Source of the DNA: Eledone cirrhosa
Lineage: Eukaryota
DNA length: 64,000 nt
Assembly (NCBI GenBank): GCA_964016885.1
Contig: OZ024740.1
Coordinates: forward strand, 257,920,001-257,984,000
Reading direction: 5' to 3'
The notes beneath the pieces are model-generated. The model made no database searches. It saw only the letters and a list, made by a program, of their open reading frames with translations, and was not told the DNA's origin. Position 1 is the stretch's first letter, and the number at the start of each line of letters is the position of its first letter. A program made the position numbers and the translations under genes. Shown one piece after another: positions 1,851-23,900 of the stretch.

Positions 1851-1876
1851 GTATATATATATATATATATATATAT

Positions 1877-2586
1877 GAATAAATTTAGTCCTTCATCAGT
1901 GATCTACCAACCGTCATTGGTATTTCATCGCTTTAAAGACCATATACCTCCGGTTGGTGCGAGCAACGGCTAAAGAAAGTCGTTGGGACACGTAAATAAG
2001 GGGAACGAGCAAGACTGTAATCAATCAAAGATGCTAATGCAACGAAAAGTGAGGAAGAAGGAGTCAAGTCCCTGAAATCGATGAATATATGTTCTGTGAA
2101 ATCGTGGACAAGAGAGAATAAAGACCATCAAACTTGGTCGAAATGTGAGCAAGGAAAGAATTTCGCACAGGTCAAACGGGAGGAAGAAGGAGTCAAGTCC
2201 CTGAAATCAGTGAACATAAGTTCTGTGAAATCGTAGACGAGAGAGAATAAAGAACAACCGGCCTTGTCAAAGTGTGAACGAAGAAAGAATCTCGCACAGG
2301 TAAAACGGGAGGAAGTAGGCGAGGGAGTAGCAGAGAGTGAGTGAGTGAATGGTGAGGAAGAGGCTAACAGAGAGAGTGACTGTTAGCGGGGGTAAAGGGA
2401 AGTGAGAGATACAGATAAAAGAGGAAGCAGTAAGAAAGAAAGAGACGGGTCACAGCGGAGGAAAATATATGTGTGAATATGAAAACAAGCTTATTGCGTG
2501 GTTGCAAATGGGTTACATATGAATAAATTTAGTCCTTCATCAGTGATCTTCCAACCTTCATTGGTATTTCATCGCTTTAAAGACCA
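1877..2586 (-). mobile_element. Retrozyme-like element, 644-nt unit with about 66-bp terminal direct repeat
   Basis: 1877-1942 is repeated at 2521-2586 (offset 644); flanked by TA-rich tracts; homologous to 10744-11360. Confidence 0.75.
1893..1957 (-). ncRNA. Putative non-circularly permuted (pseudoknotted) hammerhead with kink-turn
   Basis: Minus strand CCAACCG-GA-GGUAU-A-UGGUCU-uuaaagcgau-GAA-AUACC-AAUGA-CGGUUGG-u-AGAUCA-CUGAUGA; covaries with 11262-11326. Confidence 0.65.
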
Positions 2587-2640
2587 TATATGCATACATA
2601 TCTATATATACATACATTCATGCACACACACACACATATA

Positions 2641-3893: not shown

Positions 3894-4350
3894 ATATATA
3901 TCTATCTCCCTCTGTATTTTTTCCTCTCTCTATATATCTCTCTCTATTTCTTTACATGAATTTCTTCTCTCTATCTATCTCTCTATATCTATCTCTCTCT
4001 ATTTAGTTGCATGCATTTCTTCTTTTTCTTCGTTTTTCTTTCTTTCTTTTTATAACTGTCCCTAATATTTTTCACTACCAAATCAACTTTTCAAATGGAA
4101 GTTGAAGTTGAAAGGTACGTCGAATCTATCTATTTATAAGACTGTTTATATTGTATTTTGTCTGAAGAAGGCATAGCATATTTTTAATATGATATCCCTG
4201 AAATATATATAATGAAATAAATATGGTTTTATAAATATAGTTTCCATTTATTTAATATCGTAAATATACTCCAAATACTTGTTGAGTGCTTTTATATCAG
4301 TTATAAATATTTACTCGTTGTAACCCAACAATCTAAATAAAACTTTGCAT
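3430..4350 (+). mobile_element. PLE 3' non-coding/pseudo-LTR fragment (same family as 13340-14130 and 50535-51040)
   Basis: Extended similarity to the tail of the PLE at 11400-14130; ends in (TA)n. Confidence 0.7.
4155..4218 (+). ncRNA. Type I hammerhead ribozyme
   Basis: AUUUUGU-CUGAAGA-AGG...CCU-GAAA-UAUAUA-UA-AUGAAAU; palindromic stem III. Confidence 0.75.
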
Positions 4351-8185: not shown

Positions 8186-9354
8186 CGGGGGATTAAAATT
8201 TATTTTACAGAACAACTTTTTTTATTTCGATGGCAATTACTTACAAGCTAATATCGGGGATTGCGATGGTACAAAAGTTGCTCCAGTAGTCATGGCATAC
8301 TTGGAAGTCTAGATATATGAACATTCCAAATCAAAATACGGATTGAACTTCCACAAATATTTATCAGAGAATTTGAAACGAGATGATTGCTTTATTCTTT
8401 GCTCTCACAGACTCGACCAACTAAATGATTTCAAAAATTTAATTAACGGCATCAATAACCACATCCAATTCACAATGGAATACAGCCAAGATCAATTCCA
8501 AAGAATACCTGCTATTCACCAACAACCATCCAAAGCACACGAAGACGAACATCCTTTTAACCTAGCAAGAAGAATTTGCATAATTGTCTCCAATTATGAA
8601 ACGCGAAATAAAAGACTTCAAGAATTTAAGGAAATTCTGCTCGAAAGACAGTACCCACCATTACTAATAAATAATGGAATAGAAAGGGCTAAAGCAATAG
8701 GCATTAATGAATTACGAAAGCAGAAACAAATTCACGGTACGCCCAATATTCTATCATATACCTCAACACACAACCCAAGAAATGCGGAAGCATACAACAT
8801 TATTCACAAGAACATCGCACTATTGAAACAAGACCCAAGAATGAAAAATGCCCTTGAAACACAAAATAATCAAAAGCAAAAGACAACCGAAATCAATAAA
8901 TATATTATTCATCAATGCCAAATTACCTACGAAAAACCTATAACCAACTGTAATCAAATGCGGCCGCTCTAATTGTGGAATCTGCACTCACCTCATTGAA
9001 AGCACCATGTATACATTTAAATCAGGACAAAATTTTGTTGTAAAAAATCACTTCACTTGCACATCAAAAAATTTACTTTATGCCATTAAATGTAAAGGAT
9101 GCAATGAAGATTATATCGAGCAAACTAAACTCACACTCAGAAATAAAATGACAATTCATCGCCAGCAGATACGAGACCCTACCACAAGACAGATACCATT
9201 TAGTGCACATCTAGACATATGCGCAAGCGATAAGACACCCAAATTCCAAGTCTTCCCAGTTTATCTTTGCGCTGACAATACGACAGAACAAATACGAATA
9301 AATAAGGAAAATGTGTTTATTCAAAAATATAGACCAGCATTAAATATAGTTTAA
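8183..9354 (+). pseudogene. 5'-truncated, frameshifted Penelope-like element: RT C-terminal part plus GIY-YIG endonuclease
   Basis: FILQNNFFYFDG..GTKVAP, IQFTMEYS, PFNLARRICIIV, CGIC and NLLYAIKCKGCNEDYIEQT...H motifs; starts next to (TA)n. Confidence 0.85.
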
Positions 9355-10743: not shown

Positions 10744-10746
<3 letters not shown>

Positions 10747-11358
10747 TCAAAAATGGCGAGCTGTGTTGTTGCATTTATGTATAAAAAATGAAGACATAAG
10801 TGCAACAACACAGCTCACCATTTTTTATTCATATATACTTTCCCCTTTGCTGTGACCTGTCTTTTTCTCTTCCCTTGCAGCTATCCTCTTTCTCTCTCCC
10901 CCTTCTCTCTCCGTCTCCCTCTTACTTTCACTCATCCCCTCTGCTAGTCACCCTATCTCGGCTAGCCTCTTCCTCGCACTTCCACTCACTCACTCTCTGC
11001 TACTCACCCTCTCCCTCACTTCCTCCATCGTTCCACACTGTACGCGATCTTTCTTCTCTCTCACATCAGTACGGTTAAGATATGTCTTGGTTCTCCTCGT
11101 CAATATTCGCCTGTTCTTATGTTCGAAATGAATTATTGACTTGATTTTTTCATCTTTTCCTCTCTTTACGTTGCCTCACCATTCTTGTCTGTTTACATGT
11201 CTTTCTATTTCTCCACCCAACTCTTTTTATCCCAATAATTTATTTTAGTTATTGTATCGCCCTAGGCGGAGGTATATTGTCTGTAATGCGAAGAAATACC
11301 TATGATGCCTAGTAGACAACTGATGATGGATATTCCTAACCTCTATTTCTAATTCTTC

Positions 11359-11360
<2 letters not shown>
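10744..11360 (+). mobile_element. Divergent member of the 644-nt retrozyme-like family with a 5' fold-back (10744-10832)
   Basis: Similar to the reverse complement of 1877-2520; terminal hairpin; (TA)n flanks. Confidence 0.7.
11262..11326 (+). ncRNA. Putative non-circularly permuted hammerhead with kink-turn (second copy)
   Basis: CUAGGCG-GA-GGUAU-A-UUGUCU-guaaugcgaa-GAA-AUACC-UAUGA-UGCCUAG-u-AGACAA-CUGAUGA. Confidence 0.65.
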
Positions 11361-11407
<47 letters not shown>

Positions 11408-11515
11408 AAGTTATATTTAAAATTGTTGGGTTACAACTAGTAAATATTTATAACTGATATAAAAGCACTCGACAAATATTTGCAGTATATTTACAATATT
11501 AAATAAACTTAAACT

Positions 11516-12472
11516 ATGTCAACTTTAACTCTAACCACCCCCAGATCTGTCAAAAACACTATAGTAAACTCAGTCCAAAAACGTATCTCTAGGATCTCGT
11601 CGAATAGAAAGATTTTTGACGAAAAGGCCCAATACTATAATGATGCACTAGCTAGGGCAAGGTATGCTGATAAGATTGTATACATAGATAATGATAGACA
11701 AACTAAACAAAGTAACAACTTTTTTAATTACGGCAACAACATTAACAACTATAATAGAAAGCATTACAATAATTCCAAAGGACAAAAAAGAAATAGAACT
11801 AGGAACATAATTTGGTTTGCCCCCCCTTTCTCACTAAACATTAAAACCCACATCGCTAAATTATTTTTCAAAGCTCTTGATAATCGCTTCCCTAGAACAC
11901 ATAGGTATCACTCAATCTTCAATAGGCATACAATTAAATTAACCTACTCATCCACCAAAAATTTAGCACAAAATATTAATAGAATAAATAATAGGAACTT
12001 AAAACCTACTGATAATAGCATAAATAATATACAAGTTAACAAATGTAACTGTAGAGATAGATCTAAATGTCCGTTAAATAACAACTGCTTAGTTAAAAAT
12101 ATAGTATACAATTGTAATGTTAATACTGACTCTAATTCTTTTAACTACGTCGGTTCCGCATCGACGGAATTTAAACTTCGCTATAATAACCACAAGAATT
12201 CTTTCACAGATCCAAATAAAAAATCTTCAACGGCACTATCAGGGGTACTCTGGCAACTTAAGCTAGATAACGTTAGATATTCGACGGCTTGGAATATAGT
12301 CTCAAGAGGGATTCCTTTTAATTCATCCTCTGAGACATGTGACCTCTGCGCAGAGGAGATATTCTTTATACTAAAATCTAAAAACTCCCTTAACCTACGG
12401 ACAAATTTATTCAGTTGTTGCAAACATAGATTAAACTCAACGTTTAAATATAAATTTAAATTTAAAATGTAG
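11516..12472 (+). pseudogene. PLE RT thumb plus GIY-YIG endonuclease fragment
   Basis: IIWFAPPFS, CNC..CPL..C, NIVY...YVGSASTEFKLRYNNH, CDLC and CKH motifs; the upstream SNHP motif is out of frame. Confidence 0.85.
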
Positions 12473-17708: not shown

Positions 17709-17987
17709 CAAAACATGGTTAAAAGAGTTCCATGTATTTTATTATGCGCATTTCAAAAACAAATATCATCATGGGATGACATTTGCGTTTTCATCAGATA
17801 AAATAGGGAGACATGATATGAAGGTTAAAAAACACTTGTGAATAGTGCAGTTTTAAATCAACATATTTTAACCTTCATATCATGTCTCCCTATTTTATCT
17901 GACGAAAACGCAAATGTCATTGGATGATGATATTTGTTTTTGAAATGCGCATAATAAAATACATGGAACTCTTTTAACCATCTTTTG
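17709..17987. mobile_element. Fold-back pseudo-LTR with two HHRs (17736-17804 minus; 17892-17960 plus)
   Basis: AUUUUAU-CUGA(U/C)GA-long stem II-GAAA-UGCGCA-UA-AUAAAAU in both arms. Confidence 0.85.
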
Positions 17988-19216: not shown

Positions 19217-20945
19217 TTATAAGGGTAGGTTTTGCTGATCAGGGATGTTATGGGTCTTTCTCAGGGTCTTTCTACACAGGTTAGCTAATTTCCCTCCAGG
19301 GGTAGCGTCCACAAACATGACACTCTGGTATCTCTGGTTGTCGTACCATGAGGTGGCTTTCCCTATCTTATGTCTAGCCCTATCTAAGCCATTCCATGAT
19401 TTTCTCCTGTATAATGGGCAAATTCCTTTCATGTCCAGTTCTATGAGGGTCTTATACTTCTCCATGGCTCCTTCGTATACTCTGATTCTGTCTCTTTGGT
19501 TGTAGCCAGAGAACTGCATGTGGTTGATGAAGTGTTGGGTGTATCTTTCCATTTCTGTGGGGTCGCACATGCGGGACACATTCTTCATCACTCGTACCAA
19601 GTCTGCGATCAGAATATTAAACTTAGCCCTACTGGACATTGCTGAGTTTTTGAGTATCAGGTATTTGGAGGCCATGGCTTTAGCATAGTGTGAGTGGAGA
19701 ATTTGGGCTCTCTCGTCTATAGTGTTAATCCAGAGTTCCGTGTCTAATACAGGTAGTCTATTGTTAGGGTGTTTGGAAGGGAAGTCGATAGTTGCAGTTA
19801 TACTCTGGTGTATGGAATTAGCTATCTGCTGGATGCTTTCCATTGTGCTACGTTCTAAATCAAACTTGTTAGTGCTCCCTTGTGGGGATGTCCTTATTAC
19901 TATATTGATGTCGTTTACGTAACGAGACTACATGATGAGGTGTATGGAACTCTCATCAAGGAGATCTTTGAGTCTCCTTTGCCACCATACCATAAAAAGT
20001 TTGGCAACGTCACCAGCTTTGCTGACGCCAATGGCTGCTCCCTCATTTTGGCTGTAGATCTTCTCGTTGAACATGAATATGTGGCCCTTTAGGGTCGTTT
20101 TGATACTAGCCCCTATTGCATGTGCGACCATTTTTCTTACCTGATCATTGTTTTGGGGAGTCCGTATAGATTTTGTCCACCCAATCCACCTTCCCATGGG
20201 AGACCTTTTTGCCATTGAGGCTATGGTGGGATGTCTACGTCTTATGGGTCTACTGGGGCAGAAACGTCTAAAGTCATAGCTGTCTAGGAATCAGTGTCGT
20301 AGGTAAGTCTAAGTAGGAGGCCCAGTTCGTCTGTGTCGACGTCGCAGAACTCCACCTTACTCTCAATGATAATCTCCACACATTTTTCCACAGCAAAATC
20401 AATGTTAATGGATGGATACATGTGATACCACATCCATACTGCCTATTATGCAGTTGGATAGGTTCCTGTTTTTGTTGCACTCACTGATTCTGCCGAGAAG
20501 GTCCTCTGTACTGTCACATACATCTGGGAACATCTTGATTATGGGACGTATAACCATTGAGAGGAAGTAGGAGATCCTGTAGTTGCTAGCTATATTTGTT
20601 CCGCATACAGGTCTTGTTGGTGGTCCTGTTGTCGGGTTGTCGACTGTCTTGTGGTCTTTGCGGAGCCCATACAAGGGTGGTATGCCATTGTTGGACGCCT
20701 GGAAGTTGTTGGCAGAGCGTCTGCTTGGCTTTATGATGTCGGCCCACATCATCATGTGAGCTTTGAGGATTTTCTCTCTCCCATCATGTATCTGCTGTGC
20801 AATTTCGCTCGTGTTGGTGATGTGGGTTGCATAGCCTTGATGTAGTTCGGCATGCTGTCTATTGACATCCTACCAGACTTATCCGTGGCTAGACATACTA
20901 CCTCACCATCCCTTGTGCGCTGCTTGAGGCTAACCAAGCCTTCTG
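19217..20945 (-). pseudogene. Frameshifted Penelope-like reverse transcriptase (a third, distinct PLE type)
   Basis: TDKSG, PPLYGLRKDHK..PTRPVCG, GSMDV, YSQNEGAAIG, YVNDI, LPVLD and FSGY...PLYR motifs across several ORFs. Confidence 0.85.
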
Positions 20946-23900
20946 ATTTAAATGATCTCAGGTCAAATTGTATAGATGTGATAGCCATCATCGAGTCCAG
21001 GTTTCACAACAAGCAGCAGCTAACCCTATGTTCGATGACTTTGAGATCTACGCATCCCTCTTTCAGCCAGGAGGTGGAGGGGGAGTTGCTGTTCTGTTTC
21101 GAAAAAACTTGGATCTCAAAGCACAAACGATTCAGTTGGATACGGAGGGCAACTTGGTGGTCTTGAACGTGAATGGTAGTGAAGGTGGAGCTTTCAGACT
21201 GGTGGCGGTATATGCCCCGACTGGGACATCGCGACCAGAGTTCTTCAGGCGTCTGGAGCCATTCCTGGGAACGTCTCGCTCCTTAGTATTTGCGGGGGAC
21301 GGAATGGCATTGTTGATGCACGTTGGGACTATGTAGGAGCTTGTGATAATAGAGGGGGGTGTAATAGCCTCAAAAAATCTCATCAGCCAATTCCAACTGG
21401 CTGATAGAAATCGACTAGACTTCCCAAGTGTACCACTGTGGACGTGGATCAACCGCACTGGGTCTTCTAGATCGCATTTAGACAGATTTTTAACTAGACA
21501 GACAGATAAGAAAAAATTAATCTGTCCACAAATGCACATGGTTGCCTATTCAGACCACAAATTAGTCACCTGCGTAGTCAACCTTGATAGAACACATAGA
21601 CAGGGAACCGGATACTGGAAGCTAAACACATCGCTTCCGGCGCGTAATGCCTACAATAAACGGATTAGTACCTTAGTTAAGTACCAGTTGATGGGGGCGA
21701 TCGTCAACAACAGGTGGTGGGGCTCTCTCAACAGAGCAATTAGAATACAATCGATAGCAATTGGCAAGGAAGTAGCTTTAGAAAAAAACAAAACCGAAAA
21801 GGAACTAGTAGCTAAATTAAAATAGGCACTTAGGAATGGCAGTACAGCTGACGTGCTAGCGGCGAGAACGGCACTAGACCAGTTCTTCAACGTGAAACAC
21901 GAAGGTTGTATTGTCAGAAGTAGAACACGTGTTGTAAGCAACGAGGGAGCCATAGCTGTTAGCTGGGCCCAAGTGGCAGAGGCGAAAAGTGGCAACAAAT
22001 CCACAATTCGGTCCTTGCTAGACAAAGATGGACGCATTCTACTTGAATCCAAGAAGATGTGCACGGCCTTGCAGCAGTATTTTGCACAACTGTTCGGCCT
22101 AAGCGGTACGTCAAGGAGGTGATGGACTTCAGCTCCTACCTCGACGGCGTATCACGACTCTCGAGCACGTATGCGGAGAGCTGCGAAAGGCCGATCACAG
22201 CGGGCGAAATAGAAGATGCCCTAGGCCGCTGTGGGAAACGCAAATCACCCGGTTTAGATAGTCTATCCTATGAGTTTTACATAGGCATGCCAGACTTGCT
22301 CTCTGGCGTCCTCGGAGCGGTCTACTGCAACTGGTAGCAGAACGGAAGGATTCCCAGTTCTGTAGGTAGAGGTGTAGTAACGCTGATCAGGAAAGTTGAG
22401 AACAAGGAGGATGAGATAAGCAATTCAGGCCCATAACTCTGCTCAACACAGAGTTAAAGATTTTGGCCAAAGTATTAGCAGCGAGGCTGGCGCTTATTGT
22501 CGAGAACCTGGTAGGGGAAGCGCAAACGTGTGCAATCCCGACCAGGTCCATACACGACAACCTCCACCTTATGCGATACATCATAGAGAGAGTAGGGCGT
22601 AAACTTGGCTTCGGTCGGCTTCTTATCAATTTATATCAGTCTAAAACATTTGATAAGGTCGACCATCAATACTTTGAAGCGGTTGTCAAGGCGGCCGGCT
22701 TCGGTCCCGTCTTCAGAGGCTGGATTGCTGCCATGCACAACAGCATCTGCTGGGCAGTCAAGATGAATGGCTACCTATCGGAGCCATTCCAAATCATGCG
22801 TTCCATCCGTCAAGGGTTCCCTCTCTCCTCCATTCTGTATGTACTAACTCTTGAGCCATTACTGCGGGAGCTGGAGCTGTCACAGGGCATATCACTCGAA
22901 CGAGGACTGCGGAAAGCAGCGTCGGCCTGTGCTGACGACATAACAGTAATGGTGTCGAAAACCTCGAAAGTCGGGGTAATCGGCAACCTATTACAGGGAT
23001 ACGAAACATTGACAGGAGCAAGACTAAACCCAAACAAGTCCGTCGGTTTGCAACTCGGCACATGGAGAGGCAAACCCATGCCTTCCGACAGTGTCATTGG
23101 ACGCTGGACAGAAGGACCGGTGAAATTGCTCGGGGTCTGGTTTGGTCCAGACCTCCAGGTGGACAAGAACTGTCACGGCGAAGTGGTTTGGACTCACCCA
23201 GAAGTGGGCTGAGTGCAAACTCTCCTTGAAAGGTCGAGCGGAGGTGGCTAACACTTACATAGCGTCCGTCATCTACTATCGCTTGACAATCGTGCCTTGT
23301 CTCCGCGAATACCTCACCAAAATGGAAGCCTACTCTTCAAGTTCCTCTGGAAGAAACAGGCGCCATTGGTGAGGAGATCCATCTGCTGTCAACACCCTTC
23401 TAACGGAGGGCTGGGTATGCCGTGGCATACACGCAAACACGCGCTGAGGCTACGCCATCTCCAGGTATTCCTGACCGGTGAACCGGTGTGGCTGTCGTTT
23501 GTGAGACGACCTCTTCCACAACTCGTCTCACTAACAGAGCTGCAGTCCTGGGTCAAGCGAAGACCGAAAATGGGCGCCTGGCACCTCGAGTGCATTCAGG
23601 CGCTCACAGCCCTCTACCAAGCGGAACCGGCAATCAGCAGAGACTCCACTTCGACATTCTATAGGGGATTAGTGGTGGATAAGTGTGACGACATTCTCTG
23701 TGAAACTCTAGGCATCGAGGAAGACGAACTGACCAGTCTGTTCGGGAGGACTTTCCGTCCAGTGCCTATGGATAACTTCCAGAGGTGTCTGGCCTGGCAG
23801 TGCTACCGAGGAACTCTACCAGTTCGAGACAAACTCTACAAGCACGGACGCCCTGGCAGAGATCCTGCCAAAATAACCTGTCCAAGATGCGAGTAGGACA

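Follow-up and report, generated by a model that had tools for sequence, protein, structure and literature searches.

The window analysed here, 64 kb of Eledone cirrhosa DNA, resembles an animal genome, with many microsatellites and Penelope-like element (PLE) debris. Near its start lies a short element, named element A, which comprises a 644-nt unit plus a 68-nt repeat within a (TA)n tract, and which is preceded on its 5' side by degenerate TA/TG microsatellite sequence (Table 1). A 77-nt direct repeat (1870-1946 and 2514-2590, 96% identity) gives a period of 644 nt, which is real at the level of DNA; an RNA monomer of that length is putative. No ORF of at least 150 aa overlaps element A, and the folding of the 644-nt monomer is weak (z of −1.4 when linear and −1.8 when circular).

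Two relatives of element A are present in the window, the full copy B and the short copy C, which starts 11 nt further in than element A. Counted from the predicted cut site described below, copies of the family end at two 3' positions separated by about 45-50 nt, +68 (A) and +117 (C), or about +86 and +130 (B). The (TA)n target, the partial tandem in A, the inverted 5' arm in B and the tail with two 3' ends are PLE hallmarks (PMC8557442), and element A is likely a non-autonomous, non-coding Naiad-type PLE. It lacks the ORF with N-terminal GIY-YIG and reverse transcriptase (RT) domains by which an autonomous Naiad is recognized, and our search for an autonomous partner found none. The PLE ORF fragments in the window are apparently of the C-terminal-endonuclease type and have no link to the element. 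Reads and contigs from the sequencing runs of two organisms include a large number of diverged copies, and contig depth peaks over the ribozyme and some 50 nt upstream of it.

Table 1. Coordinates of element A, its relatives and coding debris in the window.
Feature	Position	Strand	Remark or basis
644-nt unit between two predicted cut sites	1943..2586	-	repeat period
3' partial repeat, +1 to about +68	1875..1942	-	runs into (TA)n target
(TA)n target tract at element 3' end	1852..1876	.	
Predicted complete split-core hammerhead	1892..1962	-	block-order scan, pairing and duplex energies
Predicted k-turn: bulge 1918-1916, tandem GA 1915-1914/1950-1949	within 1907..1957	-	published k-turn consensus
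Distal helix, 7 bp, 1957-1951/1913-1907	within 1907..1957	-	prolongs stem III
Conserved 8-bp hairpin directly 5' of ribozyme	1964..1985	-	2 two-sided changes relative to copy B
Internal duplication, 129 nt	2045..2302	.	83% identical
Upstream partial ribozyme	2536..2586	-	only the portion 3' of the cut site
TATA common to element and flank	2587..2590	-	junction ambiguity / microhomology
Copy B	10744..11362	+	about 70% identical to A, between TA tracts
Copy B, inverted short arm	10744..10793		
Copy B, direct arm	10794..11362		
Copy B, predicted complete ribozyme	11257..11327	+	predicted cut after 11276
Copy C, short, truncated, +12 to about +117	52589..52686	-	between TA tracts
Three broken PLE ORFs (apparently C-terminal GIY-YIG) and a LINE-like RT fragment (Pfam RVT_1)	8313..8972; 11513..12472; 19217..20869; 21337..23896	+; +; -; +	

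Other hammerhead-like repeats also occur in the window. The TA tract that holds element A ends a relative (921-1855) of a 591-nt family, in which inverted repeats are nested (arms 1290-1539 and 1606-1855, 96%). The family itself forms a perfect tandem array at 36598-41343, with about 8 units that are 100% identical; each has a type-I-like hammerhead with a TTGATAA core and a palindromic stem III, as in a retrozyme-like satellite. In the TTGATAA core, U3-A8 replaces C3-G8, which we take to be a compensated pair. Seven canonical-order (type I) hammerhead-like motifs, with CUGANGA at 4162, 17899, 50189 and 50852 (+) and at 17797, 50631 and 42105 (−), represent further repeat families, none of which matches Rfam at the gathering score. 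A minimal type-I-like piece at 10630-10595 (−) has the same bases after CUGAUGA as element A, possibly a trace of common origin.

On the minus strand of element A, we modeled a hammerhead of about 70 nt. Its core is complete, with CUGAUGA at 1899-1893, GAAA at 1926-1923 and AUA at 1945-1943, and is identical in copy B. Stem I (1942-1937/1905-1900, 6 bp) and stem III (1948-1944/1923-1919, 5 bp) flank the site, and stem II (1+4 bp) closes the core. A17 corresponds to 1943, placing the predicted scissile bond after A1943 of the minus strand, and the 3' product would begin at 1942. From 5' to 3', the order is the stem II 5' strand, stem III with the AUA site, stem I, the stem II 3' strand, GAAA, stem III, a k-turn-like loop, the stem I partner and CUGAUGA. 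The block order is S-G-C, hence outside types I, II and III (CGS, GSC and SCG).

The 5' strand of stem II (1962-1959) lies upstream of the whole cut block and pairs with 1931-1928. The 10.1-11.1 pair (1892-1927), A-U in copy A and U-A in copy B, is the sole stem II pair that uses a base after CUGAUGA. Since most of the stem II 5' strand is thus upstream of the cut block, block C is split, and this chain break between CUGAUGA and stem II is outside the six theoretical permutations. With the upstream strand, the stem II duplex reaches −5.9 (A) and −5.2 (B) kcal/mol, compared with +0.3 (A) and −0.6 (B) kcal/mol for the downstream partner. An early stem II model, with 1 bp, a 3x3 loop and 2-4 bp downstream, was abandoned for its unstable duplex relative to the upstream strand pairing. 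In copy A, a helix of 1942-1935 with 1893-1886 competes with stem I (−6.2 versus −4.9), whereas in copy B stem I is the stronger (−5.7 versus −3.7). We rejected the competing helix as the true stem II, as GAAA would then be about 10 nt off. The GGA at 1891-1889 (−), two bases past CUGAUGA, has no partner in the model but is kept in copies A, B and C and in Octopus Naiads; it may be involved in a tertiary contact, or pair with the new 5' end once cleavage has occurred.

An all-block-order scan of the window gave two S-G-C matches, element A and 11276-11326 (+) in copy B, and a stricter descriptor gave the same 2 matches in the window versus 0 in each of 300 block-wise dinucleotide shuffles. Pair counts and controls used A and B, the same two sequences from which the fold model was derived: all 23 of 23 pairs are kept in both full copies, with 5 two-sided and 2 one-sided changes; slid controls are 30-52% paired; 11 of 500 column shuffles reached the observed value; when the 12 paired columns that changed were filled with random letters, all pairs survived in 357 of 200,000 trials; and with the upstream hairpin included, 30/31 (A) and 31/31 (B) pairs form, 7 changes are two-sided, and 8 of 200,000 random trials succeeded. 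The upstream stem II strands are invariant between A and B, so covariation in this helix is seen only among published sequences, read by eye. Rfam gave 0 matches at the gathering score in the 64 kb. Pattern scans of metagenome and viral contigs gave 0, 6, 3 and 22 loci, of which none (0/31) has both stems I and III; these we dismissed as chance matches and not relatives. We hold with high confidence that the fold is conserved, and the family is probably cleavage-competent. Covariation is better support for the predicted activity than the 5' junction.

The same fold might be a binding or priming element for a Penelope-type protein, with no cleavage, or with protein-assisted cleavage only. The competing helix of copy A, stronger there than stem I, would suit this reading. 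So would the Poseidon element PAc, the one PLE reportedly tested in vitro, whose hammerhead required protein and was dispensable for insertion (PMC11167929), and the Xenopus retrozyme dimers, 8 of 9 of which failed to cleave in Li et al. 2026 (10.64898/2026.07.22.740005). However, both full copies and the Naiads read by eye retain the NUH site and every core nucleotide, and binding would need fewer such positions. We consider this role improbable.

Element A does begin at the predicted cut position: the upstream repeat starts at 2586, the equivalent of 1942. As originally allowed, the junction is ambiguous by 4 nt, since identity runs on through TATA, and it lies between −4 and +1. GGAGG/CCAACC is absent from the upstream repeat; also missing there, beyond what the original prediction noted, are the conserved hairpin (1985-1964) and the stem II strand at 1962-1959. 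Under uniform truncation, the chance of a junction in −4 to +1 is 5/644, or 0.8%. The original prediction concluded that self-cleavage had made the template 5' end, and took the junction as independent support for activity. For copy A, a ribozyme-cut template RNA is, in our analysis, indeed the most economical reading, and we lean towards it by a modest degree, R2 elements offering a precedent (PMC3774820); set against it are the single copy, the TA microhomology, the other ends and the lack of a dominant depth step. The junction is not independent proof of activity: the TATAT of the cut site is microhomologous to the (TA)n target, and of the family's four 5' ends in the window just one coincides with this site.

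The monomer contains five TA runs of at least 4 nt, of which the cut site is one and the others are at +67, +107, +117 and +497. If such runs are favoured, the chance of the observed junction is about 1 in 5 (runs of at least 4 nt) or 1 in 3 (at least 5 nt). The four family 5' ends in the window, at +1, +12, ~+80 and ~+90, all fall in the stretch 0-100 nt downstream of the site, and the other ~540 nt contain no such end. Short copies would be expected in any case. Depth and reads were taken from 4 of 13 sequencing runs. The ratio of contig depth 5' to 3' of the site was 0.97 (X1) and 1.48 (X4), and 0.78 and 0.77 in two biased RAD runs, compared with about 0.5 expected for elements built like A, bearing in mind that depth does not equal copy number. 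No pile-up of loose ends at 2586 appeared among the 24 rows listed, which stand beside 545 others, and only 115 of 6087 and 111 of 5200 RAD reads fit both repeats. RAD molecule ends were located at 1885 and 2159-2162; they appear to match MseI- and EcoRI-like sites, which would enrich an internal fragment. Any pile-up of 5' ends might go unseen among tandem arrays or under the RAD bias.

A real ribozyme on an uncut (multimeric or circular) template, truncated by chance where TATAT annealed to (TA)n, would account for the position of the cut site in one of five TA runs, for the three of four 5' ends that lie elsewhere and for the lack of a depth step in X1 or X4. It also agrees with the PAc report, in which uncut RNA was the main template in vitro and no RNA-seq reads ended at the hammerhead site (PMC11167929), and with the microhomology priming proposed for R2 5' junctions. 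On the other hand, copy C joined its flank with 2 nt of microhomology or less, so a junction can form without a long TA run; the ~540 nt that lie upstream of the site contain not one of the four 5' ends; and a circular template would offer no reason to stop at the junction. We regard an uncut template as a real but lesser possibility. A longer tandem might also have been trimmed after insertion, through a microsatellite-mediated deletion ending at TATA. The degenerate TA/TG microsatellite of the 5' flank and the near-identity of the two repeats, which differ at 2 of 66 positions, are compatible with such trimming, but no upstream remnant of the element was found in the flank, and we think it very unlikely.

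According to Craig et al. 2021 (PMC8557442), Naiads target (TA)n and are without canonical hammerheads, some having a core that fits no descriptor, noted as 'HHR_core / half_core'. In the parts of the PMC8557442 supplement with the consensus file of 54 Naiad families, a search for four CTGANGA variants, which passes over motifs broken between lines, gave 62 matches (19, 16, 18 and 9). By eye, 9 of the 62 are clear split-core hammerheads (three near-identical Acropora, two Octopus and four other records), having complementary stem II strands of 4-6 bp that differ in sequence and of which one is upstream. Two more are partial. A further six, from a nematode stretch, are type-CSG hammerheads whose blocks are intact and which have one additional helix. 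The remaining 45 are mostly chance matches in coding regions, although several look structured. Type CSG was known before from two metagenomic sequences only. About ten more structured-looking CUGANGA segments, near parts 16-19 and 23-24 of the same file, fit neither form and are possibly further hammerhead wirings.

The two Octopus Naiads have, by eye, the upstream hairpin and the k-turn pattern, and their 3' ends lie about 120 nt past the site. Compared by eye and without alignment, these 3' ends are alike in architecture to the element and have short motifs in common with it. The two groups share the (TA)n target, partial tandems, an inverted 5' copy and the tail, and by eye the split core lies near several consensus 3' ends; element A differs in having no ORF and in stem sequences unlike the Octopus consensus. 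The split-core ribozyme is probably common to Naiads and element A. No paper describing a split-core fold in PLEs was found in the literature searched, most subscription papers being outside it.

Overall, we somewhat favour the view that element A was mobilised by a Naiad and that its 5' end marks the cut of the template RNA by a predicted split-core hammerhead. A tandem transcript would fold and be cut at the upstream site, leaving the downstream ribozyme whole; alternatively, the RT may have jumped between cut monomers. A Penelope-type RT/endonuclease, likely from a Naiad, would nick (TA)n, and internal priming on the RNA, near +68 or +117, would give the two 3' ends, that is, the tail. The cDNA would then extend to the cut 5' end and be joined via TATA. 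In the PAc report, the PLE tail is explained by two internal RT start sites, and the two 3' ends of the element family match this (PMC11167929).

The three helices of the fold reconverge at their outer ends by 0-2-nt linkers, and the length of stem III differs widely among relatives, which points to a head-to-tail dimer, with one unit's tails pairing with another unit's loop, as the active form; on this model we judge the prospects about even. One-sided cleavage of such a dimer would yield the template implied by element A. Dimeric PLE hammerheads were reportedly described by Lunse in 2017. A monomer might be active if the k-turn folded the distal helix back onto the tops of stems I and II, a possibility we place somewhat short of even. 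The standard k-turn pattern, a 3-nt bulge followed by tandem G-A/A-G between helices, is kept in copies A and B and in the two Octopus Naiads. The 3b-3n pair is Watson-Crick in copy A and U-G in copy B; by the ion-folding rule, a Watson-Crick pair here predicts no kink in ions alone and U-G should kink (PMC4382518). U at 3b, which suits an active monomer, is common in reads (246/731 in X11, 459/866 in X12 and 92% of X1 depth). Yet in other Naiads, stem III and the distal helix together form 14-22 bp by eye, one with a 1-nt bulge, with linkers of 0-2 nt, a geometry in which an active monomer looks impossible.

The head-to-tail dimer may extend beyond element A. We put forward, tentatively and with less than even confidence, that Naiads of several animal phyla and their non-autonomous satellites carry an active broken-chain hammerhead that works as a head-to-tail dimer, one unit being cut and the other left whole. 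The resulting template would begin at a cut site and still carry a whole ribozyme at its 3' end, the state that element A would preserve as a fossil, and the (TA)n target could provide part of stem III at the AUA site. If true, a hammerhead topology excluded by assumption in a systematic permutation study does occur, and non-circularly permuted hammerheads are placed in animal genomes. This would also explain the apparent absence of hammerheads in Naiads, which are among the most abundant invertebrate retroelements, as opposed to other PLEs. If 5' ends pile up at the cut site, there would be genomic evidence for ribozyme-cut RNA as a PLE template.

Among known ribozymes, the fold is most readily compared with type-SGC HRIMA-1, which shares the order of site, GAAA and CUGAUGA, is pseudoknotted and has a short linker between stems I and II (Eckert et al. 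2023, PMC10085705). In type SGC, block C is intact, a helix joins the extensions of stems I and II, and the examples come from metatranscriptomes only; a split block C was assumed not to occur (PMC10085705). Element A, in contrast, has at most one stem II pair after CUGAUGA and takes the rest from the 5' end. Its stem III is extended via the k-turn-like loop, its distal part is formed by the 5' arm with the strand that precedes stem I, no helix joins extensions of stems I and II, and it is located in a genomic retroelement. The published SGC descriptors, with CUGAUGAG or CUGAUGAUG, CGAAA and 2 or more further pairs, do not match element A (PMC10085705). Its ribozyme is therefore distinct from the published type SGC, as block C is split.

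Non-LTR retrozymes are likewise short, non-coding, PLE-linked hammerhead repeats in Cervera and de la Pena 2020 (PMC7229834), where hammerhead dimers from axolotl are also described. The unit length of element A is inside the 51-972 bp range given for retrozymes in Li et al. 2026 (10.64898/2026.07.22.740005), which ties them to PLEs and reports a search for type I motifs only. Non-LTR retrozymes, as presented there, have type I hammerheads in tandem units, whereas the two ribozymes of element A, one full and the other partial, have a different topology. The 5' HDV-like ribozyme of R2 is similar in lying mostly 3' of its cut site and in setting the template 5' end, and target-like sequence at the site aids 5' joining, according to Eickbush et al. 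2013 (PMC3774820). The two systems differ in ribozyme and in element class, and the cut 5' end that is experimental in R2 is deduced from sequence in element A.
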